64,000 nt of DNA from Methanobacteriota archaeon (lineage in GTDB: Archaea > Halobacteriota > Bog-38 > Methanoflorentales > Methanoflorentaceae), in contig CAVVIU010000002.1 of NCBI GenBank assembly GCA_963748445.1, positions 8,974-72,973 on the forward strand, given 5' to 3'. Below the pieces are notes generated by a model that saw nothing but the letters and a program-made list of their open reading frames with translations, had not been told where the DNA came from and searched no databases. The position numbers and the translations under genes are program-made. Positions 1-20,131 of this stretch are shown here, piece by piece (the stretch's first letter is position 1; each line of letters begins with the position of its first letter).

Positions 1-262
1 CAAAAATACCTTTGAAAAGGTTCAATCGTGGCCTTCGCACGGTCTTCTGCTTGTAGTGCCCTTTTATGTTTTTTGTAAAATACTTGAGGTCATTCTTTTC
101 TGGATCTAACCCAAGTGAATCCACAAACCCGGTGACAACTTCCTGGGGCACACCTGAATATTGATAGACGCTCGAATCACAAAATTCTACTTCAAGCGTC
201 GACGTCTCTTTATCGTATCCCACAGCTCTGACGCTGATAGAAACAACAATCTCACGATCCAT
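1..262 (-). CDS. KTSC domain-containing protein (partial, continues beyond window start)
   Basis: Minus-strand ATG at 262-260. My translation MDREIVVSISVRAVGYDKETSTLEVEFCDSSVYQYSGVPQEVVTGF fits the KTSC pattern (VGYD...L.V.F..G..Y.Y..VP). The frame stays open to position 1, so it is absent from the ORF track. Confidence 0.5.
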   Translation of the reverse strand, partial: MDREIVVSISVRAVGYDKETSTLEVEFCDSSVYQYSGVPQEVVTGFVDSLGLDPEKNDLKYFTKNIKGHYKQKTVRRPRLNLFKGIF

Positions 263-417
263 AATCTTACTCTGATTTAACTATATATAACTTTTCTGAG
301 TTTAAAAATTTCGTTCAGTCAGACCCGAAGGGGCAGTGCGAGAAATGGCCTGTTCACTTTATTATTCGCTTTATCTCATTTCATTGAATATCTGTTCGGC
401 ACTTGGCTATGTGGAAG

Positions 418-1242
418 CTAGATATGAAGTCGAAGCCTTGTCCCGACTGAAGTGAAAATGAACTCAGATTGTGTGCACATAATTCCTGCAGCATTCCAGC
501 CGGTACAATGCGATGCAGCAATATATGTAATCTCACGTTCCTTAAGAAACGTTGCAACCGCACATATCTGTGCCTCCGTTGCATCGATGAGGTGCATACC
601 GCCGATAACTCCGCAAACCGGTTTGTCTGTTATCGTTTCAGCCTGCCTGATTGTGTTGCAAACGCCCGCATGTGCACAACCGAGCAGTAAAATCGACTTC
701 TGTGCTCCTTCTACGACAACTGCCACATCATCCCAAACGTGATCTGTAAAGCAACCGTTAGAGTCCAGAAATAAGCCGTTGAGGGCCTGGTCTTCTGGGA
801 TGGGACGATTGATTTGACCTGTCGTCCAGATCCCTTCCATTTCTTCCTTCGGTTCCTTCTGCAAGCGAAGGTGCGCACCGCGATGCTCCAACTCCTCCTT
901 GCTAATCGCCATCCCGACACTGCGCACTTCCCTCCCAGATCCAGTTATTGAAAAACGCTCGGAAAAAACGTCAGGGTGTGCTATTATATTCATCTCTGGA
1001 AAAATGCGTAAAAATGAGCACAACCCTCCGGTATGATCATAGTGGCCGTGGCTTAGGATAATGGGGGGATTGTAGAACGTTGTACCGAGAATCAAAGCGT
1101 TGTGCACCGCAGCGCTAGTCTGCCCGACGTCAAACAGTATCTGCCGCCCGCTTCTTTCAAGCAGAATAGAAAGCCCGTGTTCGGCGATCAACCCTCGCGT
1201 GTTCACTGTATTGTCGCAGAGAATCGTAATATCAATCTTCAT
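418..1242 (-). CDS. MBL-fold metallo-hydrolase (COG1237-like)
   Basis: ORF 418..1254; the likely start is the internal MKIDITILCDN. LSHGHYDHTGGL is the metallo-beta-lactamase HxHxDH motif. The N-terminus MKI.I..DN....L..EHGLS is typical of the COG1237 family. Confidence 0.7.
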   Translation of the reverse strand: MKIDITILCDNTVNTRGLIAEHGLSILLERSGRQILFDVGQTSAAVHNALILGTTFYNPPIILSHGHYDHTGGLCSFLRIFPEMNIIAHPDVFSERFSITGSGREVRSVGMAISKEELEHRGAHLRLQKEPKEEMEGIWTTGQINRPIPEDQALNGLFLDSNGCFTDHVWDDVAVVVEGAQKSILLLGCAHAGVCNTIRQAETITDKPVCGVIGGMHLIDATEAQICAVATFLKEREITYIAASHCTGWNAAGIMCTQSEFIFTSVGTRLRLHI

Positions 1243-1484
1243 TCTACATTCCACCCTACTCTGTAACCGTATACTTATTTATACTTGTAGAGTAAGAGCA
1301 TGCCATGCAGGATTCTGACAGAACAAGAGTATCGCTGCGTTTCAACGCTGTCACAAACAACCCTGTGGCAGTGTTGTTTTCATTTATATGAAGCGTATGC
1401 AAACGGCTATTTTTGTGTTAATCTATCAGATATCAAGGCACGATTCTTTCGTGACTTCTAAAAGTATTACCCTCGCCCATGTTC

Positions 1485-1878
1485 CTATCTACTCAATAGT
1501 TCGGAACGAGCGCGGTCATTTCCAGCCGTATCTCTTCGAGCCGTCGCTGAGAGTGCCTTTATCTCCTCGTCAATTTCTAGTTGTTTTTTCCAGTCGGCAA
1601 CTCCCCTGTTCGACTCTCACCAGCTCCTCTCCCGTAACATACTGCCATTTTCCGCGGCACCTCGAAGGTTCAAAGTAGTGATAAGGGCCGTGTAACTGCC
1701 CTTGCCTGCACCTGCAGTTGCGCTTGCCACAACGGATATGCCGCCGCCGCAGTGAGCCAGGAAGTGGTTGCAATTGGTCTCTTTCTATTTTGAGGATGTT
1801 AATCTGGTCAACTATCCTATTGCTCTCATCCAATAGTCTCTTAACATCACGTAACGTTTGTTCGGTGGTTTCCCGCAT
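1485..1878 (-). CDS. hypothetical Cys-rich protein (DUF6788-like motif), apparent frameshift near 1597
   Basis: ORF 1570..1878 contains CGKRNCRCRQGQLHGPYHYF. After a one-base shift near 1597 the frame continues as ADWKKQLEIDEEIKALSATARR to a stop at 1485-1487. The family assignment is from memory only. Confidence 0.35.
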
Positions 1879-2037
1879 AGGTATCGTTAATGTTCCTTAA
1901 TTCTTGCTTTCTAGGATATGTAGTCCTGTCCTGTATATGTATATATATTACTTTCTTACACTTATAATGTTTCAATATGCTAATATCAGAGTAAGATTTA
2001 TATGATAGAACATCAGAGTAAGATACGAAGATGTATT

Positions 2038-2916
2038 ATGACAACTCGAAATGATAGTGAAACTCACGTACCACTGAAACAACATCCCAGCACTGCTCGT
2101 CTGCGAACGTTGGCAAGGCACTGCATCATCGTGATGAGCGGAAAAGGCGGCGTTGGGAAATCGACGATATCAGCCAATCTTGCGGTAGCGCTTTCTAACA
2201 AGAGTTACGCGGTAGGGTTGCTGGACGCAGATCTGACCAGCCCGAGCATCCCGCGCATATTGGGGTTGCACGGGAATGTGACGTGTGAAGACAACCAGTT
2301 AGTGCCCATATCATATTCAGAGAGACTCAAAGTGCTCTCGACAGGCTTTCTAATCCCGTCGTCGGACTGCGCAATCGTGTGGCGAGGTGGTCTCAAAATG
2401 GCCGCAATCAGGCAGTTCATTAACGAGACAAAGTGGGGCACACTCGACTTTATGGTCGTTGATCTTCCGCCAGGCACCAGCGATGAACCCTTATCCATCG
2501 CACAGGACCTCACACCTGATGGAGCACTGATTGTCACTACCCCCCAAGATGTCGCTCTCATCAGTTCAAGGAAATCGGTTGACTTCGCCCGCAAGTTGGA
2601 GGTACCAATTATTGGCATCATCGAAAACATGAGCGGATACACGTGTCCAACGTGCGGCACGCGTGTGGACATATTCAAGAGTGGCGGTGGAGAGCGATCT
2701 GCCGGTGAACTTGGGGTTTTATTTATTTGCCGCGTGCCGCTCGATGCAACTATCTGCGAATCAGGGGATAGCGGCAGACCGATCGGGGAAAATAGCGCGA
2801 ACTGCCTGCACGCAGCAGAGAGCATGGAAGTGATTGCAAACAGCGTGTTACAATTTTACGGGATGAAAGAGAGTGCTTTCACCATGACCAAAACACGACA
2901 AGGAGGTGACAAATAA
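2038..2916 (+). CDS. Mrp/NBP35 (ApbC) family Fe-S cluster carrier ATPase
   Basis: ORF 2002..2916. Deviant Walker A VMSGKGGVGKST, DADLTSPS, DFMVVDLPPGTSDE, and CPTCG in ENMSGYTCPTCG. The ATG at 2038 (MTTRND) is the preferred start. Confidence 0.85.
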   Translation: MTTRNDSETHVPLKQHPSTARLRTLARHCIIVMSGKGGVGKSTISANLAVALSNKSYAVGLLDADLTSPSIPRILGLHGNVTCEDNQLVPISYSERLKVLSTGFLIPSSDCAIVWRGGLKMAAIRQFINETKWGTLDFMVVDLPPGTSDEPLSIAQDLTPDGALIVTTPQDVALISSRKSVDFARKLEVPIIGIIENMSGYTCPTCGTRVDIFKSGGGERSAGELGVLFICRVPLDATICESGDSGRPIGENSANCLHAAESMEVIANSVLQFYGMKESAFTMTKTRQGGDK

Positions 2917-3257
2917 TGCCCGGATTTGATAGAACTGGACCTGTTGGTTGCGGCCCCATGACCGGAAGGAGACAGGGGCTCTGCACAGGTTTGACATCTC
3001 GCAGGTTTGCCGATTGGAGATCGCCAATACTCGGTAGGGGCGGAAGAGGCAGAGGCTATAGGTGGTGTTACTACGCTACAGGCCTACCCAGATGGGCGCG
3101 AACTGGCCCTTTCGAAGACGTTCCTTTCGATGTAGACAAAGCGACAATTAAAGAAGCTCTTGAAGAAGAGGCAAGCTTGTTGGCAGATGAGCTCAATAAA
3201 ATCAAAATGCGACTTGAAGAAATCAAAACTGAAGAAGACAACAGGGATGCGCAGTAG
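2916..3257 (+). CDS. DUF5320 family protein
   Basis: The N-terminus MPGFDRTGPVGCGPMTGRRQGLC, an RGGRGRG tract and a C-terminal coiled coil (EEEASLLADELNKIKMRLEEIK) are characteristic. The start overlaps the Mrp stop (ATAATG). Confidence 0.7.
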   Translation: MPGFDRTGPVGCGPMTGRRQGLCTGLTSRRFADWRSPILGRGGRGRGYRWCYYATGLPRWARTGPFEDVPFDVDKATIKEALEEEASLLADELNKIKMRLEEIKTEEDNRDAQ

Positions 3258-3286
3258 ACTGTCGCATAACACGAGAGGTAAATACA

Positions 3287-3607
3287 ATGCGAATTGCTGT
3301 TACCGCCCAAGGTAACGATGTGACAGCGCCTGTAGATTCACGGTTTGGGCGCTGTCAGTACTTTATTATCTACGACACAGATACAAATGAGTTTGTGGTC
3401 AGAGCGAATGAAAGCGCAGCAAGATCAGGCGCAGGCATTCAAAGTGCACAATTCATGATCGACCACAACGTGCAGGTGGTCATCTCCGGTGAGGTAGGGC
3501 CAAATGCACGACAGGTATTGCAGAGTGCAGGAATTGAAATACGAACTACAACTGCTAGAACGGTACGAGAAGCCGTGGAGCAGTTTCTCAAAGGAGGTTA
3601 CACATGA
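3287..3607 (+). CDS. NifB/NifX-family (COG1433) cofactor-binding domain protein
   Basis: MRIAVTAQGNDVTAPVDSRFGRCQYFIIYD ... GAGIQSAQFMIDHNVQVVISGEVGPNA matches the NifX/NifB C-terminal-domain pattern. Confidence 0.8.
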   Translation: MRIAVTAQGNDVTAPVDSRFGRCQYFIIYDTDTNEFVVRANESAARSGAGIQSAQFMIDHNVQVVISGEVGPNARQVLQSAGIEIRTTTARTVREAVEQFLKGGYT

Positions 3608-3966
3608 AAATTGCTATTGCTACAGAAAACGGAGAAGTGTGCGGACATTTTGGACATTGCCCTGAATACACACTATACACAGTTGAAGACACAGAGATAC
3701 GAGTAAAAGAGGTGATTCCAAATCCTGGACATAAGCCGAATTTTCTGCCAGGATATTTGCACCAATTTGGCGTAGACGTAATTATTGCCGGAGGCATGGG
3801 GCCAAAGGCGCAAACGCTCTTTGCCGAAGCAGGCATCGATGCCATACTTGGCGTCGCGGGGACCACCGAAGAGACCATTGAACGATATGTAAAAGGGACA
3901 CTTCAACCGGGAGCGAGCAGCTGCGAGCACGGAAGCTTCAGCCACGCAGGCTGCCCTAACCACTGA
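3604..3966 (+). CDS. NifB/NifX-family (COG1433) cofactor-binding domain protein, second subtype
   Basis: MKIAIATENGEVCGHFGHCPEYTLY ... NPGHKPNFLPGYLHQFGVDVIIAGGMGPKA. The start overlaps the preceding stop by 4 nt. Confidence 0.8.
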   Translation: MKIAIATENGEVCGHFGHCPEYTLYTVEDTEIRVKEVIPNPGHKPNFLPGYLHQFGVDVIIAGGMGPKAQTLFAEAGIDAILGVAGTTEETIERYVKGTLQPGASSCEHGSFSHAGCPNH

Positions 3967-4003
3967 GCTATTGGAAAATGTAAGGAAGGACGCGCACGAG
4001 ACT

Positions 4004-4868
4004 ATGATCATCTCAGTCGCAAGCGGGAAAGGGCGGCACGGGTAAGACAACAGTAGCAGTCAACTTAGCTCTTGCCGTCGCACGTGAGTCAAAAGTCCAA
4101 TTTTTTGATTGTGACGTCGAAGCGCCCAATGCACAATTCTTTTTACAGCCTCAATTTGACCATCGCGAAGCGGTGAAGGCAGCGTGCCCTACGGTTAACG
4201 GAACTCTCTGTACGTTTTGCGGTAGGTGTGCCGAGGTGTGCGCATTCAACGCGCTTGCAGTGCTGAAAGATCGCGTGCTCGTATTTCCAGAGCTCTGCCA
4301 CGACTGTGGCGGATGCGCACGGTTCTGTCCAGAAAACGCCATTGGCAAAAAAGAGCACGACATCGGCTTTGTAGAATCTGGATATGCGGGAACTATTGAG
4401 TTCTTTCAAGGGACGTTAACCCCGGGGGAGGCATTTGCACCCCCCATTATCTGTGCGCTCAAGCGCAAAATGAGCGATGATTCGATCGTTATAGTAGATG
4501 CGCCACCGGGCACCTCGTGCCCTGTTGTTGAAGCGATACAGGGAAGCGATTGTTGTCTGCTAGTAGCAGAGCCTACTCCCTTCGGACTACACGACTTAAC
4601 CCTCGCGGTGGAGCTCGTGCGTAAGTTGCGGTTACAAGCAGGTGTCGTCATTAACCGTGCGGACGTGGGCGACAATAAGGTGGAGGCGTATTGCATCCAC
4701 GAAGGGCTTCCCGTGATCATGAAGCTCCCGTACGACAAACAGCTTGCAATCAAGTACGCTGAGGGTACGCCAGCAGTAGATGTGCTTCCGACGTACAACG
4801 AGAAGTTCTCTCAACTTTACTTGGATATAAAAACCTTACACAATAACAAGTATTTCCGTACAACATAA
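4004..4868 (+). CDS. MinD/ParA-type P-loop ATPase with inserted 2x[4Fe-4S] ferredoxin domain (COG1149), frameshifted in the P-loop
   Basis: ATG 4004 gives MIISVASGK, then a stop at 4043. Removing one G from the run 4031-4033 restores GKGGTGKTTVAVNLALAVARESKVQFFDCDVEAPN, which joins ORF 4173..4868 (CPTVNGTLCTFCGRCAEVC, CHDCGGCARFCP, VDAPPGTSCP). Confidence 0.75.
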
Positions 4869-4903
4869 CGAACTCATATCGATATGAAAGAAGGAGTGAG
4901 AAC

Positions 4904-5766
4904 ATGAAGACATTGACCGTAGTGAGCGGCAAAGGGGGCACCGGAAAGACGTCAATCGTAGGATCGTTTGCAGCGCTATCAAAGAACTCGGTTTTTGCTG
5001 ATTGCGATGTTGACGCAGCCGATCTGAGCCTCATTATGGACTGCACAGTTGAGGGAGTCGCACGATTTTGTAGCCTCTCAGAAGGCGCAGATAGATGTTG
5101 ATAAATGCATTCAGTGCGACATCTGCGAGGAGGTGTGCCACTTTGATGCAATTCACGCCTATCGCAGTTGACCGCCTGTCGTGTGAAGGGTGTAAGGTGT
5201 GTTCTCTTGTGTGCCCAAAACAAGCCATAACGATGGAAGATGCGCTATCTGGGCAACTTTTCGTCTCGGACACTCCTTACGGACCACTAGTTCACGCACA
5301 GCTTGAACCAGGCGAGGCTAACTCAGGGAAACTCGTCACGCTCGTGCGGCAGACAGCTGAGAAGATTGCAGAAGAGACCACGCGTGAGTGTATTATAATT
5401 GATGGGCCGCCCGGCATTGGATGCCCGGTAATTGCATCCATCACAGGCGCAACAGCAGCCCTTATTGTGACCGAGCCCACCCTCTCAGGAATTCGCGACC
5501 TGACACGGGTGCTATCTGTTTGTCAACATTTCAATGTGCCCACGTTTGTGTGCGTCAATCGGTATGACTTGCACGAAGGCAATACCAAGCATATTGAAAA
5601 ATTCTGTCAGGAAAAGGGTATAGAACTCATAGGAAAGATCCCATGTGACCTAAACGTCACACGTGCTATTGTCTACCAAATTCCGGTAGTCAGATACGCC
5701 GCCAGCAAGGCGCCACAAGAAATTAAGAAGCTCTGGAACCGATTGACGGAACAAGCGCAATTATGA
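4904..5766 (+). CDS. MinD/ParA-type P-loop ATPase with inserted 2x[4Fe-4S] ferredoxin domain (COG1149), two frameshifts
   Basis: MKTLTVVSGKGGTGKTS (frame 2). KAQIDVDKCIQCDICEEVCHFDAIH (frame 0, 5061-5156). PIAVDRLSCEGCKVCSLVCPKQAI ... IIDGPPGIGCP (frame 1, ORF 5095..5766). Extra bases lie at 5060 and 5157. Confidence 0.75.
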
Positions 5767-5796
5767 GCTGTGAAGCTGAATTTTTATTCCGTGAAC

Positions 5797-7016
5797 ATGG
5801 AGCAGATAACGACAGCTACTCCTGATGGCACCAGAGTAAGTGTCATCGCTATCATTGCCAATATTCTGCTAATGGCAAGTAAGATCACAGTGGGAGTGTT
5901 GTTCAGGAGCGTCGGTTTAATTGCAGACGGCGTACATTCCCTAGCTGATATATTTGGCGTCGGCGTAGTTCTCATCGGATTGAGAGTTTCTAGCCGTCCA
6001 GCAGATGTTGAGCATCCGTACGGCCATTCAAAGGCAGAACCGATTGCCGAACTCGTGGTAGCATTCATCGTTATACTAACGGGTCTTTTCATTATCTACG
6101 ATTCTATTACGGCTTTGTTGACCAAAAGCGTAGCGTCTGAAGTCCAAATTGGCATTACCGTAGCTGGTATATCAGCGGTAACAGCGTGGGTTTTATCACA
6201 CTATAAAAAAATGGTGGGAAATCAGATTAAATCAAGCGCTCTCATAGCAGAGTCAAAACACTCAGTAATTGACGCTATCTCCTCGCTGTCTGTTGCGGCG
6301 GGCCTTATTTTAACAAGTCTTGGTTTCTGGTACATGGATCCGATAGTCGGTATAGTGATTTCAATGCTTATCATACAGATTGGTATAAGCGTGACGAGGA
6401 CATCTGTTGACACGCTTATGGACAAAGAGGCCCCTCCTGAACTACGTGAACGTATTAGAGAGGCCATTGAAAGCGTGCCTGAGGTTAAAGGGGTAAATTA
6501 CATACATTCGAGAGGCAGCTGGAACTATAAGATAGTGGATGCGTCTATCACAGTAAGTAGAGGGTTAACGGTAAGTGATATCTCCGCGTTACAGGAGAGA
6601 ATAAAAGAGGGAATATTTTCAGCGATTCCTGAGGTCCACCAGGTAAATGTGATGGTGAATGAGTATACAGATATCATAACTGTTGCGGCAAGCTCAACCG
6701 GGATTGGCCTAGAGGCTGCATTTGCCAATGACTTAGGAAATTGCGACTATTTCGTTATTGCAACCGTGCAGAAAGACGCAATTAATGTGGTAGCGTCATT
6801 TGAAAACCCGTACAAAGAGCTCTCGCGAAAGAAGGGGCAAAAATCGCCGATTTTATGCACGATCATAAGGTTGATGTGGTCATTACGGGCCACGCAGGTG
6901 AAGGTGCTATGCAGTGGCTGAGAGGATACGGTATAAACATTAAAGTAGTCGATGGCTCGGGTTTACGTGTTTTTGATGCTATAAACTCTGTAAAATTATT
7001 CGCTCAAAAGAATTAA
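5797..7016 (+). CDS. cation diffusion facilitator (CDF) transporter fused to a C-terminal NifX-like domain; frameshift near 6830
   Basis: ORF 5770..6921 has CDF motifs (HSLADIFG, HPYGHSKAEP, six TM helices, a cytoplasmic domain). It runs without a stop into IITVAASSTGIGLEAAFANDLGNCDYFVIATV. After a -1 shift near 6830 the domain continues as GAKIADFMHDHKVDVVITGHAGEGAMQWLRGYGINIKVV to a stop at 7014-7016. Confidence 0.7.
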
Positions 7017-7357
7017 CTTCATAACTGTTAGCCGCATGAGATGGCAGAAAGCGAGGAAGAGTGAACTAGTATGCTTAACATTCGAAGTTGTATCTTTATC
7101 TTTGTGTTCAATCTATCTTGCGCCATGTTTTTCTATTTATGAGTATTAACTATCGATAAATGCTTCCTCTACGATAGGTTATATGTTATCTAATAATCTA
7201 GTAGCTTCATCTTCAGACTCTACACCGTGAACCCACATAATGTGAAGACAATAATAGTGATGACCAACATTCGTCAGTTCAGTTAATACGCGCAACGAAA
7301 TCGCGGCTCATATAATATTAATTATATGTCTTTGTAGCTACAAATATACTAGATAGT

Positions 7358-7732
7358 ATGAACGAATCTTTTGTGCTTTCGGCGAATTCAACCAGTCGTG
7401 ACCTGCTACCAGTCGCTATGGCAGTGCACGAAATACTCAATCGACTGCCGGTAACGATGCGCAGCAAAAACAACCGTGGAATCAAAATCGAGAACGGAGA
7501 AGTAAAAAGTGAGAGCTATACGGGGCCAGTTCTGGAAATAGTGTTAAAGGAAAATCTAACGATAAAGACAAAGCCAGAATCTGGCGACTATAAAGATATA
7601 CCAGTGATTGTTGCCCCTATACGGGACAGCACGGGGTTGCCGATCGCTGCGATAGGTATTGTCGATATTACCGGTATCTTTGATCTGGCAGACTTAATGA
7701 AACATCAAACAGAATGGTGGAAAAAGGGCTGA
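7358..7732 (+). CDS. conserved archaeal hypothetical protein (possibly DUF2111-like)
   Basis: Clean 124-aa ORF preceded by an AT-rich region. Its resemblance to small methanogen-specific proteins is from memory and unverified. Confidence 0.4.
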   Translation: MNESFVLSANSTSRDLLPVAMAVHEILNRLPVTMRSKNNRGIKIENGEVKSESYTGPVLEIVLKENLTIKTKPESGDYKDIPVIVAPIRDSTGLPIAAIGIVDITGIFDLADLMKHQTEWWKKG

Positions 7733-8362
7733 AGACAGAAGATGAGAGATCTAATCTAGCAGACTTACCTGCCTTTAGGGCCAGCAACGCGAACGTTGGG
7801 CACCTGCTGACCTTGTTCTTGTGGCAATCGGATACCACTTAGCAATCAATAAATACTGATTATTCTGTGCACGTTGTTGATCCGTTGTTAACGCACGGCA
7901 AGTGCGCTTGTCAGCGGGCTATCAATGGGAACATTGCATCCAGTGCGAGGTCAACCGCCTGGACGGACAGTTTTAACAACTCTAGAAGCAACGCACTGTC
8001 CCGAATGAATCCAACGCTAGAACTCCCTAAAGTAAGATGAGCGTTCTGCACCACTTGTTTGGTGTAGTAAGAGACGTCCTCATTCGGTGCCTTACTCATC
8101 TAAAAAGGTCATGGCTAAAATGCAAAGGAACGATAGATGGTCTTCTTGCATTGACGGATTGAAACAATTTTAGTTTTGAACGCTAACAAATATTGGTAAT
8201 TCTTTCTTATTTCCCAAAACGAGGTGTTTCTCTGCCTTGCGAGACGATAGTTTGTGCCATAAAAAAGGGATTTAGCTATCCGTTCACATTGTGAATTTAA
8301 CTTCTTAAAATTCTACGTTGTTATACCCCTCTCACAAGTCCTTCACAAGTCCTCATCTTTAA

Positions 8363-8458
8363 CTAGAGGCATAGCTGGGTAATGTTGACGTTGGCGTGGC
8401 CTAACAGCAGCTGGACTGTCCGGATGTCCGCTCTCGGCCTCAGCATGGCATTGGCATT
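8363..8458 (-). pseudogene. tyrosine recombinase (integrase) C-terminal remnant
   Basis: The minus-strand translation NANAMLRPRADIRTVQLLLGHANVNITQLCL* contains the recombinase box II signature (D.R.VQ.LLGH....T). The catalytic Tyr is recovered only after a 1-nt shift (ITQ-YASS). No upstream recombinase body exists because the ABC permease occupies that space. Confidence 0.4.
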
Positions 8459-8571
8459 GACGTGGACATTGACATCATGTTCATCATGGACATCATATCA
8501 GTCATGGGCATCAGGATATAGCACACCATTAACACCATGTCTGGCATAAACGGCATTAAACAAAAAGGCAT
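8440..8571 (-). CDS. Met-rich 43-aa small ORF (16 Met); putative, function unknown
   Basis: Not in the track because it is under 60 aa. GAGGTGA lies 6 nt upstream of the ATG at 8571. Translation: MPFCLMPFMPDMVLMVCYILMPMTDMMSMMNMMSMSTSMPMPC*. It sits directly downstream of the ABC-2 permease on the same strand. Confidence 0.3.
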   Translation of the reverse strand: MPFCLMPFMPDMVLMVCYILMPMTDMMSMMNMMSMSTSMPMPC

Positions 8572-8688
8572 TTTTTCACCTCTAGCGTTTTTAGCACGTT
8601 TACTTAATTTAAAGCCTTTGGGTTTTCGTTTATGTTCGACTGCAATGACGTACGTAGCGGTGGGACGTCGATACGCGATCGCGGTGAG

Positions 8689-9460
8689 TTACAGGCCTTT
8701 CATGAGATTGCGCTTGTGCATCGCGCTGGCGAGCACTACGAATACGACACTGAAGCCTATCATGGCAACCCAATCGAGCATAGGGAGAATCACAGAAGCA
8801 GAACTGCCGAGCAAGCTCCGATCGAATCCATCGACCAGATAGGTTATCGGGGAACAGTAAACGGCCGCTCGTCGCTATCCCGTGGAGGCTCGCTATCGGC
8901 ACGAAAATGCCGCTGATGAAGATCAAGGGAAAGCGGACGAGGCTGGAGAGCATCATGATGTTGGAAGGGTTGGTGCTTGCCGGGGAGGCGAGCAGTACCC
9001 CCAGCGATGAGAAACAGAACGCACCGAGGAGGAGGCTCACGGCCATAAGGAGGGCCCCGCCAACGCTTACCGTGTACCCGAGCGCCACCACCCCTACGAC
9101 TAAGATGATGAGATTGATGATGATGCCGTAGAGCATGCCCGCTACGACGTCTCCGAGAATAAGGGTGTTGACGGTGACGGGAAAGGAGAGCAGTCGCTCG
9201 TACGTCCCTGCCCGCTTCTCCCACGGGGTGATCAGCGGGCCGACTGATGAGGCGATAAAGAACACGAACATCGCCAAAAGCCCGGGGAAGAACGCGTGAA
9301 GGTCAGCCTCTCGCCCGAAGAAAAACGCGAGGAACATGAAGAGCGGGAACAAAAACCCAAACATGAGCACCGGCGGTTTCGTGTAGTAAATCCGCATGTC
9401 CTTTTCGGCGACGAGGAGCACGCCGCGGAAAAACTGGCGGTTCACCTCGCTAGGGTACAT
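8689..9460 (-). CDS. ABC-2 type transporter permease; frameshift near 8866
   Basis: ORF 8630..9460 is a polytopic membrane protein. Its C-terminus degenerates into Arg/Cys-rich nonsense. Shifting one base at 8864-8869 gives AVYCSPITYLVDGFDRSLLGSSASVILPMLDWVAMIGFSVVFVVLASAMHKRNLMKGL*, with a stop at 8689-8691. Confidence 0.75.
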
Positions 9461-10411
9461 CGCGGCCCCCCTTCTGTTAACTTTACGAAGGCATCCTCAA
9501 GGCTTGCCCCGCATATCTCGAGACAGGTAAACGTTAACCCGTGTTCCTGCGCACATGTCGTTAGATACTTCACGAGCTGGTCAGGATCGTCGGTGTAGAG
9601 TTTCCACTTGTCTCCGACTTTTTCGATCTCGTTCACGATGCCACTCTCCTTCACGATGCTCGCATCGATGGGCGTTGGTGAAGGAGACCTCAACCGATTG
9701 CGTCTGTTGAAACGTCCGCTTCAGCTGTTCCGGGGCATCAATCGCCGCAATGGTGCCTTGATTGATGATCCCCACTCTGTCGCACAGGAGGTTTGCCTCT
9801 TCAATGTTATGGGTGGTGAGGAAAATCGTCGTACCGTGCGCATTCATCTCCGTGATAATCGTTCTGATTAACCGTTGACTGTGCACGTCTAACCCCGAGG
9901 TTGGCTCATCGAGAAACAGAATCTCGGGTATATGAACGAGGGCGCTCGCAATCAGCACCCGCTGTTTCATTCCCTTTGAAAAGGTCTCAACGTGGTCATC
10001 TCTCCTCTCGTACAGTTCAAACTGCTGCAAAAGACGGTCTGCTCTCGTCTCAAGCTCTCGTCTGGGCATCCCATAGAATCTGCCTGCCAGGATGACGTTC
10101 TGCTTTGCGGTCAAGTCAACATAGACGTTGCTCATTTCCGGGATGATCCCCATGTTCATTTTTGCAGCGATCGGGTGCTTTTGTATGTCAATGCCGCCAA
10201 TGAAGATGTCCCCAGCATCCGGAGTGAGCAGGCCGGTGAGCATCCTGATCGTCGTGGTCTTCCCGGCTCCGTTGGGGCCGAGGAAACCAAATATTTCGCC
10301 TTTTGTAACGCTAAACGAGATGTTGTTCACAGCGGTGATGGAGCCGAACCGCTTGGTCAATCCCCTCACTGCAATAACGTCGTTGTGTCCCCGTTCCATT
10401 GCTACCCTCAT
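9442..10411 (-). CDS. ABC transporter ATP-binding protein; frameshift near 9675
   Basis: Walker A GPNGAGKTT, Q-loop, signature FSKGMKQR, Walker B ILFLDEPTSGLD, and H-loop TTH. ORFs 9581..10411 and 9442..9693 join as SVEVSF..IDASIVKESGIVNEIEKV. Confidence 0.85.
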
Positions 10412-10605: not shown

Positions 10606-10997
10606 ATGTGCAAGCAGAACCACGGTACTTGTTGGCAAACGTATCCAGAGCGCAGCTGGATACAGTTCCTCATACTCCGGACTCTCTTTGAGACGCCGAC
10701 GTACGGGTATCAACTCCTTGACGAGATTGACGAAAGAAGCTGTGGCTGTCATAAGCTCGAGCCCGGAAGCATCTATACCGTGTTGCGACGGATGGAGGAG
10801 AAGGGGCTGCTTTCGTCGACGTGGGAACGGGTCAGATTCCGGTCCGGATAGGAGAATTTACACCGTGACCGAGAGGGGCGCTGAAGTTCTGAAGATGGGG
10901 CTGAGCACCATTGTACGGAGGAAACAGACTCTTTGATGATTTAATTGCTTTCTATGAAAAGCGTTTCAAAAAAACAGAACAAGGAGGTGAACAGTAA
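10606..10997 (+). CDS. PadR family transcriptional regulator; two frameshifts (near 10828 and 10924)
   Basis: WIQFLILRTLFETPTYGYQLLDEI ... GSIYTVLRRMEEKGLLSSTWE is the PadR winged helix. It continues in frame +1 as GSDSGPDRRIYTVTERGAEVL, then in frame +2 as RLFDDLIAFYEKRFKKTEQGGEQ*. Confidence 0.75.
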
Positions 10998-11252
10998 ATG
11001 TGTGGACAGGGTAGTTGTTGCATCTCATATGGAGAGGAGTACCGTTGTGGGTGTAGCTGTGGTTGTTGCGGGAATCATCGCCATCACCACCATGAGCATC
11101 ATGAGCCAGGAATGAGTATGGGAATGGACATGGAATCCCCGGTGCCGTTGATGGACGTTGATGAAGAAATTAAAATGCTTGAAGAATACAAAGACGCACT
11201 GACCAAGCAACTGGAACGGGTTAACAAACGGCTTGAGGGGTTTAAACGCTGA
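10998..11252 (+). CDS. Cys/His/Met-rich small protein with DUF5320-like C-terminal coiled coil (putative metal-binding)
   Basis: MCGQGSCCISYGEEYRCGCSCGCCGNHRHHHHEHHEPGMSMGMDM, followed by EEIKMLEEYKDALTKQLERVNKRLEGFKR. A strong RBS AAGGAGGTGA is present, and the ATG abuts the padR stop. Confidence 0.6.
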   Translation: MCGQGSCCISYGEEYRCGCSCGCCGNHRHHHHEHHEPGMSMGMDMESPVPLMDVDEEIKMLEEYKDALTKQLERVNKRLEGFKR

Positions 11253-13899: not shown

Positions 13900-14224
13900 T
13901 AAGCTAAAAAGCGAAACGACTATATAAGGAACGTAGCTTTATGATTTTTATAATAATATTAAAATATAAATTTGTAGCCTTTTATTTGACGAGATCTCAA
14001 TACTAATATATAGAAACAAACCAAAGCGCAAAACTGCGCATTTTGAACCAAAGTTTAATAAACTATAAAGTTGCTTCTTTAGTTAACCCGAGGATGTACT
14101 ATGCACGTCAACAAATGCAACTCGATAACATCTTTGGTAACGGGTTGTGTTCGCTTTTTTATCAGTGATTTTTGCAGTTAGAATTAGTGGCTCTGTATAG
14201 TTGCCATTCTCGAGGAGGGATAAT
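13900..14224 (+). promoter_or_regulatory. AT-rich mcr upstream region with several TATA-like elements and a leader
   Basis: About 300 bp of non-coding sequence with TATATAAGG, TTTTTATAATAATATTAAAATATAAA and TTTAATAAACTATAAAG. RBS GAGGAGGG precedes the mcrB ATG. The transcription start cannot be fixed from sequence. Confidence 0.25.
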
Positions 14225-15545
14225 ATGGCAAAATTTGCAGACAAAGTCGATATCTATAACGACATGGGCCAAAAGGTTGGTTCGAACATTCCGATCGAAT
14301 CGCTGAGCCCTACCAAGAACGCGGCTATAAAAAAGATCATACACACGCACAAAGAGGACTGTAGCCGTGAACCTTGCGGGAGTCGAGCAGGGATTAAAGA
14401 CGGGAGCAGTCGGCGGCAAAGGTCGAATGATCATGGGCCGTGAGATGAACCTTGACCTCGTAGGCAACGCAGGTGCGATCGCGGACAAGATGGCAAACCT
14501 TATCAGGGTAACGGACGGCGATGACACCGTCGTAAAGCCTCTCGGTGGAGGAAAGCAGTTGATGTCACAAGTGCCAACTGCACGCCTCGACGCGGGAGCC
14601 ACATACGTTGCGGGAACGACTGCCACGAGCAGCGCGTTGGTTGAGACTATCATTACCATGTTCAACGTCAACATGTTTAACGCCGACATAATCCACGCGG
14701 CAGTCTGGGGGCAGTACCCGCAGACGCTCGATAATGAGGGCGGCAACGTCAAGTCGATGCTCGAGACTCCACAAAAGGATGAGGGCTACGGCTATTCGCT
14801 GAGAAACGTGTCAGTGAACCACGTCGCGGCAGCTACTGGCAAGCGAACGATGAATTCCGCCGCGCTGTCATCGATATTCGAACAGACGGGCGTCTGGGAG
14901 ATGGGCGATGCACTCGGATGGAACGAGAGACTACAACTCTGCGGACTGGCAATGCAGGGATTGAACGCTAACAACCTTACTTATTCGCTCGTCAAGGAGA
15001 ACGGACAGAGCGGTACAATCGGAACAGTAGTTGCATCAACGATCGATAAGGCGATAGCTGACGGCGTTATTAAGGTCGATAAGACGATGTCGTCGGGATT
15101 CAAGGCGTATAAGACGGACGATGTGGCCAAGTGGAACGGCTACGCGGCAGCATGCACGCTCGCTTCAACGATTGTGAACTGCGGTGCGGCACGAGGTGCA
15201 CAAGGTGTATCATCAACGCTGCTCTACGCCAACGACTTGCTCGAGCACGAGACGGGATTACCCGCATGTGACTTCGGTAAGGTAATGGGTACCGCAGTCG
15301 GATTCTCGTTCTTCAGCCACTCGATTTACGGCGGCGGTGGTCCAGGAGTATTCAACGGTAACCACATCGTGACGCGGCACTCAAAGGGATTTGCAGTTCC
15401 GTGCGTCGCTGCTGCTGTAGCAATTGATGCAGGCACCCAGATGTTTTCAGTAGAGGCGACATCTGCGTTGATCGGCATTGTGTACGGCGATTTACCCGAG
15501 TTCAAGGACCCAATAACGGCTGTTGCCAAAGCAGCGGAGATGTGA
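14225..15545 (+). CDS. mcrB: methyl-coenzyme M reductase subunit beta; frameshift at 14357
   Basis: [20 protein letters not shown]-terminus and [38 protein letters not shown]. The frame breaks at AAA GAG g ACT GTA (14351-14363). Removing one base gives ...[22 protein letters not shown], joining track ORFs 14201..14443 and 14367..15545. Confidence 0.93.
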
Positions 15546-15589
15546 TCAAAATAAGATTAACCAACTAAGCGGGAGGTTTAAGATATATA

Positions 15590-16075
15590 ATGGTTACAAC
15601 AGTCCCGGATTCAAACAATCCTATCCAAATAGAGATATTTCCACAACGACTCTTAAATCCAGAAACGGTCCAGCAGTTAATAAGTGAGCTGCAGGGCATC
15701 AATGGCATAATGCGTGCGATCTTACACGGTCCGCGTATTGCATCAACAGTGCCGTCAGGACCAGCTAAGGGAGCTCCAAATCCACACGAGGCGAGGAAAA
15801 ACATCACGTTTGGAGGAGAGGAGATTGAACTGGGAGTACAAGTCGGAAGAATTTGGCTTGAACTTGAAGATGAGGACGTGATCGATCACATCAAAGCCGC
15901 TTGTGAAAGAGTTTTGCCTTGCGGCTTCCAGATTAATCAAGGATTATACATCCGCACGCGTCCGACGCAGACTGATTATGCTAAATGGGGCGTAATCAAG
16001 GACAAGAACGTTATTGGCATGGTAGATCCGAAGTCAAAGACTCAGATCTGCTCGTGTTATCCCTTCAAGAGGTGA
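15590..16075 (+). CDS. mcrD: methyl-coenzyme M reductase operon protein D
   Basis: IQIEIFPQRLLNPETVQQLISELQGINGI ... VGRIWLELED. Position between mcrB and mcrC. Confidence 0.9.
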   Translation: MVTTVPDSNNPIQIEIFPQRLLNPETVQQLISELQGINGIMRAILHGPRIASTVPSGPAKGAPNPHEARKNITFGGEEIELGVQVGRIWLELEDEDVIDHIKAACERVLPCGFQINQGLYIRTRPTQTDYAKWGVIKDKNVIGMVDPKSKTQICSCYPFKR

Positions 16076-16701
16076 CAATTATAGTTAGCCGTGCGACGCA
16101 CATCGTAGATTGCCGTGAATCGATGGGGCTTGGCAGAGGTGGAGGACTTGCCCAACGAGGCACGATCTCCGAAACTGGCATTCCTGACATCATCGCAATT
16201 TCGATGTCTCCAGGGCGGCGACACATAACCAAGCCGATATGCGAGATAACCCACGGCCTGAGAAATGAAGGTTTTCAGGTAGGCGTACTCGTGTTAAATG
16301 CAGGCAGCGGCGTTCCCGCTGATGCCCCCGAGAGCGCCCGAGGTCTTGGGCCAAAGTTCGGCCTTTCAATCAAAGAAGTCGAACAAATGGCTCGCCATAA
16401 GCTTGCCATAATCCACCTTGGAGGCGTTAAGACTCACATAATTTACAAGGCGAGGAATATTCTACGATTTGTGGATATCCCTGCAATTGTCGTGAGTCAA
16501 GCGCAGGTTGACTATGAGGACTTTGCGCGAATAGGGATAAAAACCCGAGTGGTCATGCCAAAACCTGAAGAGGTTCTAGCCGCAGGAACGATTGTTGGCA
16601 TTGTAACCAACGTGACTCGTGGACAGACTATCCCACGGGATAAGCTGAACGAGATCATTAAATGTATCAATAACTTCAAACGCGCCCAAAAAAGGAGTTG
16701 A
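16072..16701 (+). CDS. mcrC: methyl-coenzyme M reductase operon protein C
   Basis: The GTG at 16072 overlaps the mcrD stop (GTGA). HIVDCRESMGLGRGGGLAQRGTISE ... SPGRRHITKPICEI. Confidence 0.88.
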   Translation: MTIIVSRATHIVDCRESMGLGRGGGLAQRGTISETGIPDIIAISMSPGRRHITKPICEITHGLRNEGFQVGVLVLNAGSGVPADAPESARGLGPKFGLSIKEVEQMARHKLAIIHLGGVKTHIIYKARNILRFVDIPAIVVSQAQVDYEDFARIGIKTRVVMPKPEEVLAAGTIVGIVTNVTRGQTIPRDKLNEIIKCINNFKRAQKRS

Positions 16702-16707
16702 AAAAAA

Positions 16708-17454
16708 ATGGCTATAAATTACCCCGGTACTTCAAACGTAGCGGCGAATAGAAGGAAGGCACTCGATCCAACAGTGAAGTTGGAAAAGGTCCGTGACGTG
16801 CCAGACGATGACATTGTAGCAATACTTGGACATCGCACGCCTGGAGCAGCATATCCGTCCACTCACCCACCACTTTCTGAGATAGGTGAGCCAAAGGATC
16901 CCATGAGGGAGCTAGTTAAGCCGACAGACGGCGCAGCAGCGGGTGACCGTATTAGGTATGTTCAGTTCACTGACTCAATGTACTTCAGCCCATCGGTGCC
17001 CTATGTGCGATCGTGGATGGCGTCAACGAGGTTCAGAGGTGTAGACCCCGGCACGCTGTCAGGTAGGCAGATCATTGAGTGCAGAGAGAGAGACCTCGAC
17101 AAGATCGCCAAAGAACTGATAGAGTCATCGATGTTCGACCCCGCCCGTACAGGTGTACGAGGCTGTACGGTGCACGGGCACTCATTAAGACTAGATCAGA
17201 ACGGTATGATGTTCGACATGCTCGCACGATCAGTTATGAAACCTGATGGATCCGTGCAAATTGTCAAGGACCAGGTAGGAAGACCCCTTGACAAGGCCGT
17301 TCAAGTTGGAATGCCCATGTCAGACGACGAACTCAAGAAGAGAACGACCATTTATCGCGTCGATGGCGACGCTGCACGAGCGGACAAAGAGATGGTCGAT
17401 TATATCCAAAGAATTCACACAATGAGAACCATGTGGGGATTCAAGCCAATGTAA
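16708..17454 (+). CDS. mcrG: methyl-coenzyme M reductase subunit gamma
   Basis: 248 aa. GHRTPGAAYPSTHPPL, RYVQFTDSMYFSPSVPY, and LSGRQIIECRERDL. Confidence 0.95.
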   Translation: MAINYPGTSNVAANRRKALDPTVKLEKVRDVPDDDIVAILGHRTPGAAYPSTHPPLSEIGEPKDPMRELVKPTDGAAAGDRIRYVQFTDSMYFSPSVPYVRSWMASTRFRGVDPGTLSGRQIIECRERDLDKIAKELIESSMFDPARTGVRGCTVHGHSLRLDQNGMMFDMLARSVMKPDGSVQIVKDQVGRPLDKAVQVGMPMSDDELKKRTTIYRVDGDAARADKEMVDYIQRIHTMRTMWGFKPM

Positions 17455-17469
17455 TAAGAGGTGAAAAAA

Positions 17470-19137: not shown

Positions 19138-19150
19138 ACGAAAAATCAAA

Positions 19151-19185
19151 GGAGTGATTGATATCACTCCTCCTACACTTTTTTT
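19151..19185 (+). terminator. mcr operon terminator (hairpin plus T7 tract)
   Basis: GGAGTGAT-tgat-ATCACTCC (8-bp stem, 19151-19170), followed by TTTTTTT at 19179-19185. It starts 14 nt after the mcrA stop. Confidence 0.55.
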
Positions 19186-19559
19186 GATATCATTATCGCA
19201 ATTCATTAACTGCTTTTTAAGAACATCTGTTCGCATTGTTTGTGAGAGTAAGGAGCAAATTACAAGTTCAGCAACAGTGCAGAAACACAGCGAGCAAATT
19301 TACAGGATCATTTTATCAATCTTGTAAAACTTCACCAGTTGAACCCTAACAAAGTCCAGATTGAAAGAATGATAACTAGACAACCCTCAAGCCACCTAAG
19401 AAGTCTCGGCTATTTGATTGTGAACCCCAACTAACTAGTTAAAGAATTGTGAAAACAAGACAAATCTTGCATATGTGCGAAGAAACCAAAATATATACGT
19501 TGATCGAGGGATAAATACGTCAATACATAAAAGTAGTCAATGTACGGACGGATCAACTC

Positions 19560-20063
19560 ATGCAAAGGGAAACAATTGAAATCTCAAAAGGCGTCGCTGG
19601 GATTACAAGACCTTTCAAGGACGCCATTGAAAAGTTAAAGATAGGTAATGAAGATATAATACTGTATATAGGACTTCCTGGGGTCTGTACGCCTTTTATC
19701 GAACTGCTCTCATATGCGATACGAACCTTAAATTTAAAGCAAGTGTACGTACCAGTTATCAATCTCGAATCCGCAATGGAGGTAATTTCAGTAACCAATG
19801 TCGGAATACAATTCGGCAGCTTTGTCTCTGTTAAGAGGGCTAAGGTGGTCGTCGTTCTCGGAGGCCTTTCCATGCAAATTTCTCCAGTAAACTCCGACGA
19901 CGTCAATCTGTTTATAAAAAACGTTTTAGCAGAGGGAGGAACGGTAATTGGAATTAGTTTTATGAATATGTTTGATAAGGCGGGGTGGAGCTCTGCAATT
20001 CCGTTCGATTATATAATCGACGCGACGATCGATCCGGTAAAAGTAGAGCGATTCGTCAGATAG
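19560..20063 (+). CDS. conserved hypothetical protein (possibly DUF2124-like, methanogen-associated)
   Basis: Clean 167-aa ORF between mcr and cofH. The family name is recalled, not verified. Confidence 0.4.
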   Translation: MQRETIEISKGVAGITRPFKDAIEKLKIGNEDIILYIGLPGVCTPFIELLSYAIRTLNLKQVYVPVINLESAMEVISVTNVGIQFGSFVSVKRAKVVVVLGGLSMQISPVNSDDVNLFIKNVLAEGGTVIGISFMNMFDKAGWSSAIPFDYIIDATIDPVKVERFVR

Positions 20064-20131
20064 TTATAAGGAATCAAAAGTTGCAGAGATGTTCGACTTA
20101 TTACGTTCTGCACTACTAGTTCAGGGGAGTT

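Follow-up and report, generated by a model that had tools for sequence, protein, structure and literature searches.

The orange protein (ORP) gene cluster of Desulfovibrio, a genus of sulfate-reducing bacteria, has been studied since 2007–2011. In D. vulgaris Hildenborough, the ORP complex includes Orp3 (DVU2103) and Orp4 (DVU2104), which are similar proteins with two [4Fe-4S] ferredoxin motifs each, and Orp5 (DVU2105), which is homologous to a [2Fe-2S]-binding protein (PMC6345978, PMC8359166). It also includes Orp8 (DVU2108), the orange protein itself, whose homologues hold a non-covalent [S2MoS2CuS2MoS2] cluster, and Orp9 (DVU2109) or MrpORP, in which an Mrp/NBP35 domain is fused to a NifX-like domain termed “Di-Nase” (PMC6345978). 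MrpORP binds [4Fe-4S] clusters and transfers them to Orp3 and Orp4 in vitro, and the Di-Nase domain binds a [3Fe-4S] cluster (-445 mV) (PMC6345978). The orp genes form two divergent operons that are controlled by sigma54, OrpR, and IHF and are expressed only at very low redox potential, with OrpR serving as an Fe-S redox sensor (PMC8359166). Here, we analyzed a 64,000-nucleotide stretch of a contig from a Methanobacteriota archaeon (CAVVIU010000002.1, assembly GCA_963748445.1; the whole stretch is hereafter “the window”), in which seven genes at positions 2038–7016 are, judging from their gene content, an archaeal single-operon version of the ORP system: counterparts can be named there for all ORP complex proteins, tentatively so for Orp5, and regulation and fusion state differ.

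All seven genes lie on the plus strand. They encode an Mrp/NBP35 ATPase and [4Fe-4S] carrier (g1, 2038..2916), a DUF5320 protein (g2, 2916..3257), a small NifX-like (IPR003731) carrier of the ORP/Orp8, MTH1175, and IssA type (g3, 3287..3607), a NifX-like carrier of the Di-Nase type (g4, 3604..3966), an ATPase of the Orp3/Orp4 type (g5 or A1, 4004..4868, with the repaired stop near 4846), its paralogue (g6 or A2, 4904..5766), and a CDF transporter with a NifX-like domain at its C-terminus (g7, 5770..7016, with a likely start at ATG 5797). The junctions are tight, with overlaps of 1 nt between g1 and g2 (2916) and 4 nt between g3 and g4 (3604–3607) and remaining gaps of 29, 37, about 35–57, and 3–30 nt. 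An earlier note on this stretch, written from the sequence alone, had described seven co-directional, tightly joined genes; the layout bears this out, but g5, g6, and g7 are not intact as written, because they contain five single-base insertions or deletions (indels), and the family calls for these three genes were made on frameshift-corrected translations. On that basis, Pfam upholds every family that the earlier note had named. Its statement that each product is predicted to bind a nucleotide, an Fe-S cluster, or a metal was too broad for g2, as DUF5320 has no demonstrated ligand.

An exact look-up with the g2 gene returned no contig on record. Close relatives were found through a DUF5320 protein with 77% identity, which led to four contigs (L001–L004) whose DNA is about 87.6% identical to positions 3–7011 of the window. 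All seven genes are intact in one of them (L003), with lengths of 292, 113, 106, 120, 280, 286, and 403 aa, and the last three are uninterrupted open reading frames (ORFs) in three of the four contigs (280 and 286 aa for the two ATPases, 403–406 aa for the transporter). One of the contigs belongs to an NCBI metagenome-assembled genome (MAG) labelled “Halobacteriota archaeon”; several members of the 90%-identity clusters bear evidently mis-binned bacterial labels (Acidoferrales, Nitrospirota).

Two genes that tie the cluster to the ORP system are g1 and g4. The former matches PF10609 at 3e-88 (295.8 bits against a cut-off of 27.1) and has the features by which Mrp/NBP35 (ApbC) proteins are recognized (PMC6345978), namely a deviant Walker A motif (GKGGVGKS) and a CXXC motif (YTCPTCG). 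Against the NCBIfam MrpORP model NF041136, g1 aligns with positions 5–258 at 324.7 bits (the ApbC model gives 213 bits) and g4 with positions 265–365 at 103.9 bits, and neither alone attains the 450-bit cut-off. Because the two genes match the two halves of this model, they are, at the level of sequence, a split MrpORP (Orp9), in which the single-polypeptide fusion is absent and its halves are separate genes with g2 and g3 between them.

Both small carriers belong to the Nitro_FeMo-Co family (PF02579), with E-values of 3.7e-24 for g3 and 1.7e-21 for g4. The motifs of g4 (VCGHFGHCPE, NPGHKPNFLP, and SCEH) agree with those of the [3Fe-4S]-binding Di-Nase domain (CxHFGHC(P)E, a proline-rich motif, and C(E/D)H; PMC6345978), and the NafY structure 1P90 matches g4 at only E=0.16. 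The g3 product has 106 aa and no tail; its structural matches include TM1290 (1RDU, 1.1e-16), D. gigas ORP (2WFB, 1.2e-16), and MTH1175 (1EO1, 1.3e-14), and it scores 58 bits against the ORP of Desulfovibrio sp. X2. Its match to MTH1175, whose placement comes from PMC5524996, would put g3 in the IssA/MTH1175 clade. Subtype comparison separates two NifX-like classes, g3 going with ORP and g4 with Di-Nase/Orp5-like proteins, and in the survey described below all NifX::DUF5320 fusions were of the g3 class and all 9 Mrp::NifX fusions of the g4 class. The earlier note had also remarked that the window lacks nitrogenase genes, and we likewise found no nifHDK and no nifB/E/N among the about 50 larger ORFs scanned across it, an absence that is unremarkable for a NifX-like clade that includes IssA, MTH1175, and ORP.

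In the orp locus of Desulfovibrio sp. X2 (L006), which was found via the ORP sequence, OrpR-like PAS-sigma54 activators are followed by ORP, A1, A2, and another NifX-like gene. Its ATPase pair scores 224–229 bits to the window-type A1 and A2 in the same order, and the NifX-like gene that follows A2 reaches 44 bits with g4; in the window, this place is occupied by the divergent NifX domain of g7. G/R-rich small proteins of this locus (one of them 112 aa long) were considered as DUF5320 counterparts; Pfam gave no match, and DUF5320 was therefore not equated with Orp7. The window cluster is a single co-directional unit, not two divergent operons, and no gene for a sigma54 enhancer-binding protein (EBP) was found in the window. 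The earlier note had regarded the gene combination as a candidate for an undescribed system and, to its author's knowledge, of no experimentally defined role. This view does not stand, given the correspondence to the ORP cluster (Orp3, Orp4, Orp5, Orp8, and Orp9) and the existence of a curated NCBIfam MrpORP model, and the functional assignment of orthologous clusters that the note had said would speak against it is provided in part by the ORP cluster.

An alignment of 13 A1 proteins served to scan GTDB, each species being represented by a single genome, which gave at least 567 relatives; 80 loci were examined among the matches listed. Eight of these come from archaea (Bathyarchaeia, Thermoplasmatota, Methanocellaceae, Methanolliviera, and a Nitrososphaeria-labelled MAG), and the 72 bacterial ones are spread over 14 or more groups of phylum level, among them Chloroflexota, Bacillota, Desulfobacterota, Planctomycetota, Omnitrophota, Ignavibacteria, Zixibacteria, WOR-3, Acidobacteriota, Bipolaricaulota, Armatimonadota, Spirochaetota, and Verrucomicrobiota. 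Genes were counted with hidden Markov models built from the collected sequences, on six-frame ORFs of the same strand within 5 kb of the anchor, and short contigs make the counts lower bounds. A second ATPase in tandem was present in 78 of the 80 loci, at least one NifX-like gene in 77, at least two in 63, DUF5320 or a DUF5320-containing fusion in 52, and Mrp in 43 (as an Mrp::NifX fusion in 9 loci), against a background of 3 Mrp, 5 NifX-like, and 4 DUF5320 matches in 359 kb of flanking DNA beyond the 5-kb zone. CDF genes were found in only 3 loci, 2 of them with CDF::NifX. The co-occurrence that the earlier note had proposed to check is thus found for COG1149, COG1433, DUF5320, and Mrp, but not for CDF as a core part, and its picture of the transporter as integral to the system has to be given up. 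Gene order is fixed: wherever a locus has exactly two ATPases (79 loci), an A1-like one comes first and an A2-like one second. These loci include the X2 locus and an orp locus on a metagenome contig (L008), both of which were recovered via D. gigas ORP homologues. The anchor selects A1, and the identity and downstream position of its partner were not imposed by the search.

The paired ATPases share a distinctive architecture. Once repaired, g5 and g6 each show in Pfam a CbiA/MinD-type P-loop domain with two Fer4 motifs, and in proteins of this type the 2x[4Fe-4S] ferredoxin insert follows the first strand-helix unit. A database search with A1 gave at least 8000 proteins at E<=1e-10, with bacterial members 55–59% identical to the archaeal query. 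The eight ferredoxin cysteines are invariant in both paralogues, and so is one more cysteine in a D-x-P-P-G-x-x-C-P motif (DAPPGTSCP in g5, DGPPGIGCP in g6; 80 of 80 A1 and 77 of 77 A2 sequences), which stands seven residues after the Walker B aspartate, where g1 has an aspartate (DLPPGTSDE). The cysteine of a D-C-D motif is kept in 75 of 80 A1 and 44 of 77 A2 sequences. The invariant A1/A2 cysteine may be the equivalent of the switch II Cys132 of NifH (Asp125...Cys132), a ligand of the inter-subunit [4Fe-4S] cluster. The AlphaFold2 model of A1 has a mean confidence (pLDDT) of 93.7, and its nearest folds are archaeal MinD, ApbC, FleN, ATPase-type HypB, Cfd1, NifH, and BchL, with TM-scores of 0.55–0.65; sequence and fold searches of the PDB returned no solved structure of the ferredoxin-insert subfamily.

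Unlabelled ORFs around the 80 anchors were clustered and checked with Pfam, and the recurrent neighbours were the Fe-S scaffold NifU_N (27 loci), radical SAM proteins (22), Zn_ribbon_8 (20), MBL-fold proteins (18), DUF89/ARMT1-like proteins (16), the DUF134 regulator (15), sigma54 EBPs (13, beside the ATPase pair on Desulfobacterota-type contigs), the Fur regulator and SAM methyltransferases (12 each), and DUF364/DUF4213 “metal chelation” proteins (9). The radical SAM neighbour was considered as NifB and gave no NifB match. Division genes were not among the recurrent neighbours of the 80 loci. A shared iron/Fe-S theme is clear from these families.

The last gene combines a transporter with a carrier domain. 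In Pfam, g7 matches Cation_efflux (1.3e-42), ZT_dimer (1.6e-12), and, at its C-terminus, Nitro_FeMo-Co (1e-10), and HxxxD motifs can be read from the sequence in transmembrane helices 2 (HSLAD) and 5 (HSVID). It scores 216.9 bits with the CDF superfamily model TIGR01297 (cut-off 82.35), and among NCBIfam models MamM (174.7 bits), MamB (171.8), FieF (126.2), MntE (121), and ZitB (69) all remain under their curated cut-offs (350–420 for MamM, MamB, and FieF). The C-terminus of CDF proteins is cytoplasmic, so the NifX-like domain of g7 would face the cytoplasm. A HMMER search over 1.84 billion representatives found the CDF::NifX fusion in 42 of the best 150 representative clusters, only one of them closer than 50% identity. 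In the survey, the fusion stands beside its own A1-A2 pair in a Vecturithrix and a Chloroflexota MAG (L060, L077), where the proteins are 24–27% identical to g7, aligned end to end, with weak NifX subtype scores.

The second gene brings in a further described system. IssA of Pyrococcus furiosus consists of an IPR003731 domain of the MTH1175 clade and a cationic, Gly/aromatic-rich, unstructured tail of 70 residues (pI 10.7), which was proposed to wrap anionic thioferrate; the protein packs about 6,400 Fe into a 20-nm particle and is able to rebuild ferredoxin's [4Fe-4S] cluster (PMC5524996). The g2 product matches PF17253 at 2.7e-22 over the full profile (positions 1–99 of 99; 80.2 bits, cut-off 27). 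Its residues 1–64, with a pI of 11.5, contain 14 Gly, 12 Arg/Lys, 8 aromatic residues, and 3 Cys. In the AlphaFold2 model, pLDDT is below 50 for residues 1–50 and a helix at 75–112 is confident; residues 1–64 are predicted to be disordered, and the acidic helix 75–112 is a coiled-coil candidate. DUF5320 shows a conserved N-terminal MPGFDxTGPxGxGPxTG...G.C element, a Gly/Arg/aromatic-rich spacer with YYATGLPRWAR, and an acidic C-terminal helix. Fusions in which an ORP-type NifX domain precedes (GMGR)n-like repeats and then the DUF5320 helix occur in 23 of the 80 loci, an arrangement like that of IssA, and in three such examples both Nitro_FeMo-Co and DUF5320 are above the Pfam threshold (38.8–43.9 bits). 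An IssA-type tail is not part of g3, and a comparable segment, disordered and of pI 11.5, is encoded by the separate gene g2; by analogy, g2 may supply in trans what IssA carries in cis. Literature searches on DUF5320, COG1149/COG1433, and “inserted ferredoxin domain” returned no relevant report. A short variant of DUF5320 also occurs in six loci (e.g., L015 and L036), in which the N-terminal motif MPxGDGTGPxGxGPxTGRG is joined to a C-terminal zinc ribbon that replaces the coiled coil (26 bits with the Pfam model, profile positions 1–52).

Taken together, we consider it reasonably probable that the cluster is an ATP-driven system that loads, holds, and hands over iron-sulfide-type clusters on NifX-like carriers. 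The earlier note's suggestion of a dedicated metal-cluster pathway between ATPases and small carriers fits this reading, as the Desulfovibrio Mrp orthologue transfers [4Fe-4S] clusters to both ATPases (PMC6345978). A g1 dimer would hold a bridging [4Fe-4S] cluster on its CXXC motif and pass clusters to the ferredoxin inserts of g5 and g6, as the Desulfovibrio orthologues do in vitro. The ATPases, which are ancient paralogues, would form an A1:A2 heterodimer that couples ATP binding and hydrolysis to electron or cluster transfer. The carriers g3 and g4, whose homologues bind [3Fe-4S], Mo-Cu-S, or thioferrate, may carry such inorganic species, and g2, with its disordered cationic arm and helix, may neutralize and oligomerize the carrier-bound anionic metal-sulfide in the way supposed for the IssA tail, which is suggested by the fusions and by composition. 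In the weakest step of the scheme, g7 would be a lineage-specific accessory, probably an Fe2+/H+ CDF exporter, whose NifX-like domain ties iron efflux to carrier loading. The NifX::DUF5320, Mrp::NifX, and CDF::NifX fusions point to physical coupling of these parts.

Several observations weigh against this reading. The biochemistry is all borrowed from homologues that are 25–60% identical, none of it obtained on the proteins of this archaeal cluster, and three of the seven genes are frameshifted in the given sequence. The cluster in native D. gigas ORP is of the Mo-Cu-S and not of the Fe-S kind, and the group working on Desulfovibrio has put forward a role of the ORP complex in cell division. 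The cluster has no cysteine desulfurase as sulfur donor and no SufBC. The A1:A2 heterodimer and its inter-subunit metal site are only presumed, and the comparison with Cys132 is one of sequence position, not of superposed structures. The analogy between DUF5320 and the IssA tail is one of composition and fusions, not of sequence alignment. The CDF gene is rare in the survey, and the only hint of its metal is a likeness to MamM, MamB, and FieF that stays below threshold.

The main alternative, which we regard as possible though doubtful, is an iron-sulfur storage depot, in which g3 and g2 are a “split IssA” that nucleates a thioferrate-like polymer, the ATPases re-solubilize it, and the CDF protein vents Fe2+. 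The g3 product is of the MTH1175/IssA-type clade (PMC5524996), the N-terminal half of g2 is chemically like the IssA tail, the NifX::DUF5320 fusions are all of the g3 subtype, and Fur and NifU recur as neighbours. Proteome data from Methanococcus voltae are also in line with storage, because IssA-like proteins and the presumed ATPases between them are up in thioferrate-accumulating cells (PMC8516115). In cells grown on FeS2 versus Fe(II)/sulfide, the IssA-like Mvol_0689 and Mvol_0693 rise 2.3- and 4.3-fold, and two proteins annotated as “cobyrinic acid a,c-diamide synthase” and flagged as Fe-S binding, Mvol_0691 and Mvol_0692, rise 5.0- and 2.6-fold (PMC8516115 supplement); FeS2-grown cells hold about twice the iron and give a thioferrate-like electron paramagnetic resonance signal (PMC8516115). 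The gene order and annotations of Mvol_0689–0693 fit an X-?-A-A-X module, in which X would be a NifX-like gene and A an ATPase, and if the orthology is true, this would provide co-expression and Fe/S responsiveness of such a cluster in a methanogen. This point also counts in favour of cluster loading and transfer, where it is tempered by the fact that Mvol_0691 and Mvol_0692 are putative COG1149 proteins, matched to A1 and A2 by annotation and order. Against a depot, P. furiosus IssA functions with no ATPase requirement shown, g3 is tailless, and the coiled coil and motifs of g2 (MPGFDxTGP, YYATGLPRWAR) would be superfluous for a purely electrostatic wrapper. When isolated, the ORP proteins of Desulfovibrio formed a soluble complex of five proteins rather than nanoparticles.

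In a broader proposal, the Mrp-DUF5320-NifX-A1/A2 module would serve strict anaerobes almost universally to deposit an inorganic iron-sulfide polymer or cluster pool and, with ATP, to re-mobilize it. In it, DUF5320 would be a free-standing IssA tail, A1:A2 a NifH-like ATP-gated reductase or extractor working through the switch-region cysteine, and CDF::NifX an iron overflow valve, and the pool would also feed MCR activation in archaea with mcr genes. As a whole, we think this proposal unlikely.

A role as a cell-division or positioning device, in which MinD-like ATPases localize to membranes or poles and the clusters are redox sensors only, appears quite improbable. MinD proteins are the nearest solved folds of A1, but this likeness is common to ApbC, HypB, Cfd1, and NifH. 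The ORP proteins have been called “putatively involved in cell division” and MrpORP was located at the cell pole (PMC6345978, PMC3897727), and redox potential switches orp expression (PMC8359166). However, the recurrent neighbours are NifU, Fur, radical SAM, and metal-chelation families rather than MinC, MinE, FtsZ, or CdvABC, and the fusion partners of the module's parts are the Fe-S carrier Mrp, NifX domains, and a metal transporter, with no division protein among them.

Handling of heterometal sulfides (Mo/W-Cu-S), for example thiomolybdate or thiotungstate sequestered with copper, seems to us just as improbable. It draws on the fact that g3 is as near to D. gigas ORP as to any solved relative, together with the Mo-Cu cluster held by ORP/Orp8 homologues (PMC6345978), whereas the Di-Nase domain and IssA bind Fe-S species (PMC6345978, PMC5524996) and the CDFs nearest to g7 are of the iron type. 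Transport and cofactor genes for Mo, W, or Cu are not recurrent next to the module in the way that iron-related genes are, and the presence of the module in many lineages suggests a more general substrate.

The frameshifts raise a different question, namely whether g5–g7 are decaying pseudogenes and the cluster is no longer a functional unit in this organism, which we judge very improbable. Compared with the intact orthologues in L003, g1–g4 are free of indels and all five are confined to g5, g6, and g7, as decay would have it. In g5, which begins at ATG 4004 (MIISVASGK), an extra G at 4025 makes the frame jump inside the P-loop and an A is missing at 4835; the frame of g6 changes twice, through an extra T at 5042 and an extra A at 5166; and that of g7 changes once, ahead of the end of the C-terminal domain, where a G is missing at 6834. 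The indels at 4025, 4835, and 6834 fall in homopolymer runs, and those at 5042 and 5166 do not, which also favours decay. Yet other genes of the window are frameshifted as well, including mcrB (~14330), a class I aminoacyl-tRNA synthetase (LeuRS, ~39400), the GatA amidase (~49000), inositol-1-P synthase (~44000), PadR (10606–10936), and two ABC transporter genes (8630–10411), and such losses would be lethal if real. A second assembly of a relative (L002) is fragmented at positions other than those of the window, and apart from the indels the frames are conserved, with repaired g7 87% identical in protein sequence to its L003 orthologue and repaired g5 92–94% identical to its nearest database relatives. 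Because indispensable genes in the same window are also broken, the five indels look like errors of an error-prone, probably long-read assembly rather than cluster-specific decay.

The host is an mcr-bearing “Halobacteriota” archaeon, and besides housekeeping genes the window holds a methane-metabolism island (14200–30800) with mcrBDCGA (~14.2–19.1 kb), DUF2124, a CofH-like radical SAM gene, mtrEDC.A..H, and ycaO-tfuA. The latter pair is known for the thioglycine modification of McrA. A related archaeon (L005, McrA 91% identical) has, at 6923–9649 of its contig and 3 kb downstream of mcrA, a paralogous Mrp-DUF5320-DUF5320-NifX-A1 cluster followed by DUF364/DUF4213. Because its DUF5320 is just 49% identical to g2, these archaea may carry two ORP-type clusters. 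Proximity to mcr was considered as a general rule and discarded, as it was seen in only one close relative besides the window. The least probable of the alternatives is that in mcr archaea the MCR activation complex (McrC, Mmp7) receives, by way of the NifX-like carriers, L-cluster-type [8Fe-9S-C] cofactors made by NifB. In its favour, some 7 kb separate the cluster from mcrBDCGA in the window and its paralogue is close to mcrA in the related archaeon, the activation complex holds L-cluster-like cofactors whose shuttling is stated to be unresolved (PMC12176620, PMC13474568), and NifX proteins carry NifB-co in diazotrophs (PMC13474568). Against it, the module occurs mostly in bacteria that have no MCR, no mcr lies within 10 kb of the other methanogen-lineage loci (L064, L085), the two mcr-linked cases come from close relatives and so do not count as independent, the recurrent radical SAM neighbour gave no match to NifB, and no nifB was found in the window ORFs scanned.

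Upstream of g1, between a TTATAA box at ~1962 and the start codon, two copies of the 13-mer ATCAGAGTAAGAT lie 27 nt apart on the plus strand (1985–1997 and 2012–2024; element 1982..2024). A third exact copy (264..276, minus strand) abuts the ATG of a minus-strand KTSC-domain gene. These three copies compare with about 0.002 expected by chance, and all are exact at the orthologous places in L001–L004, where the flanking bases vary. The upstream pair is a candidate operator or leader element of the operon, and the copy at the KTSC-domain gene suggests regulation shared with it. In the relatives, an ATG after the first ATCAGAGTAAGAT copy opens an upstream ORF of 10 codons (MAEYQSKIWR*) that overlaps the g1 start. 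A DUF6788 protein with the Cys-rich motif RCGKRNCRCRQG (1570–1878, minus strand), divergent from the operon and syntenic in all four related contigs, could be a regulator that reads the 13-mer repeats. Farther upstream and also divergent, an MBL-fold protein (418..1254, minus strand; Pfam Lactamase_B), again syntenic in the relatives, may be associated with the system, given that its family adjoins A1-A2 pairs in 18 of the 80 loci. Scans of the window for tRNA and Rfam families gave no match.

Downstream of g7, a 3.3-kb segment (7011–10323) of the window is missing at the corresponding place in L001–L003, which have its flanks contiguous; it contains a DUF2111 gene (7358–7732, plus strand) and, reaching past its end, the two frameshifted ABC transporter genes already mentioned (minus strand). 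The PadR gene is followed by a DUF5320-like ORF (10998–11252, plus strand) with a Cys/His-rich head (CGQGSCC...CGCSCGCCGNHRHHHHEHHE) and a coiled-coil tail, which scores 25.1 bits with the Pfam DUF5320 model, under the 27-bit cut-off. In the relatives, PadR and this second DUF5320-like ORF stand ~600 nt downstream of the CDF::NifX gene. PadR was considered as a recurrent partner, but it was found in only 1 of the 80 loci and is thus lineage-specific.

Few metalloprotein gene clusters of anaerobes that lack a settled physiological role are as widespread as the ORP-type modules. Methane-cycling archaea have a very high Fe-S demand, and the storage and routing of iron-sulfide and complex clusters in them is an acknowledged gap (PMC8351635, PMC13474568). 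Taken alone, the window adds just a single instance, which comes from an uncultured organism and contains sequence errors; the A1-then-A2 order, the switch-region cysteine, the DUF5320 partner, the split MrpORP, the NifU and Fur neighbours, and the co-induction on pyrite in M. voltae add detail that is testable in methanogens and Desulfovibrio.

Set against known systems, g3 and g4 share with the NifX, NafY, and NifB-C-terminal carriers the Nitro_FeMo-Co fold, a fold that binds complex inorganic clusters noncovalently, but they have no nifHDK or nifENB context and are of the ORP/IssA and Di-Nase subtypes rather than the NafY subtype. Similarly, A1 and A2 have the deviant Walker A motif (GKGGxGK[ST]) and the MinD-like fold of the SIMIBI metal-centre ATPases (NifH/BchL, ApbC/Cfd1/Nbp35, HypB, CooC, MinD), from which a dimer-dependent ATPase logic may be expected, and they differ in the ferredoxin insert, the obligate pairing of paralogues, and a single invariant cysteine versus the CXXC of Mrp. 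The transporter shares Cation_efflux, ZT_dimer, and the HxxxD/HxxxD metal sites with FieF and the magnetosome iron proteins MamM and MamB, but has an extra C-terminal NifX-like domain and no magnetosome context. With IssA, the cluster has in common the NifX-like clade of g3 and a cationic disordered segment, which the 23 fusions have in cis and the window has in the neighbouring g2, whereas g3 is tailless, DUF5320 has conserved motifs and a coiled-coil helix undescribed for IssA, and IssA was not reported to need ATPases. The D. vulgaris ORP system is the closest: common to both are paired MinD-type ATPases with two [4Fe-4S] ferredoxin motifs, ORP-type and Di-Nase-type NifX proteins, an Mrp/NBP35 carrier, clustering of the genes, restriction to anaerobes, and the A1-then-A2 order, which is identical in the Desulfovibrio orp locus. 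The window differs from it in having one operon, a split MrpORP, a DUF5320 gene, a CDF protein with a NifX-like domain after A2, and an mcr-bearing archaeal host. The ORP-type system itself is already known, and what is new here is its occurrence as a single archaeal operon in which MrpORP is split, DUF5320 is a partner, and CDF::NifX stands last.

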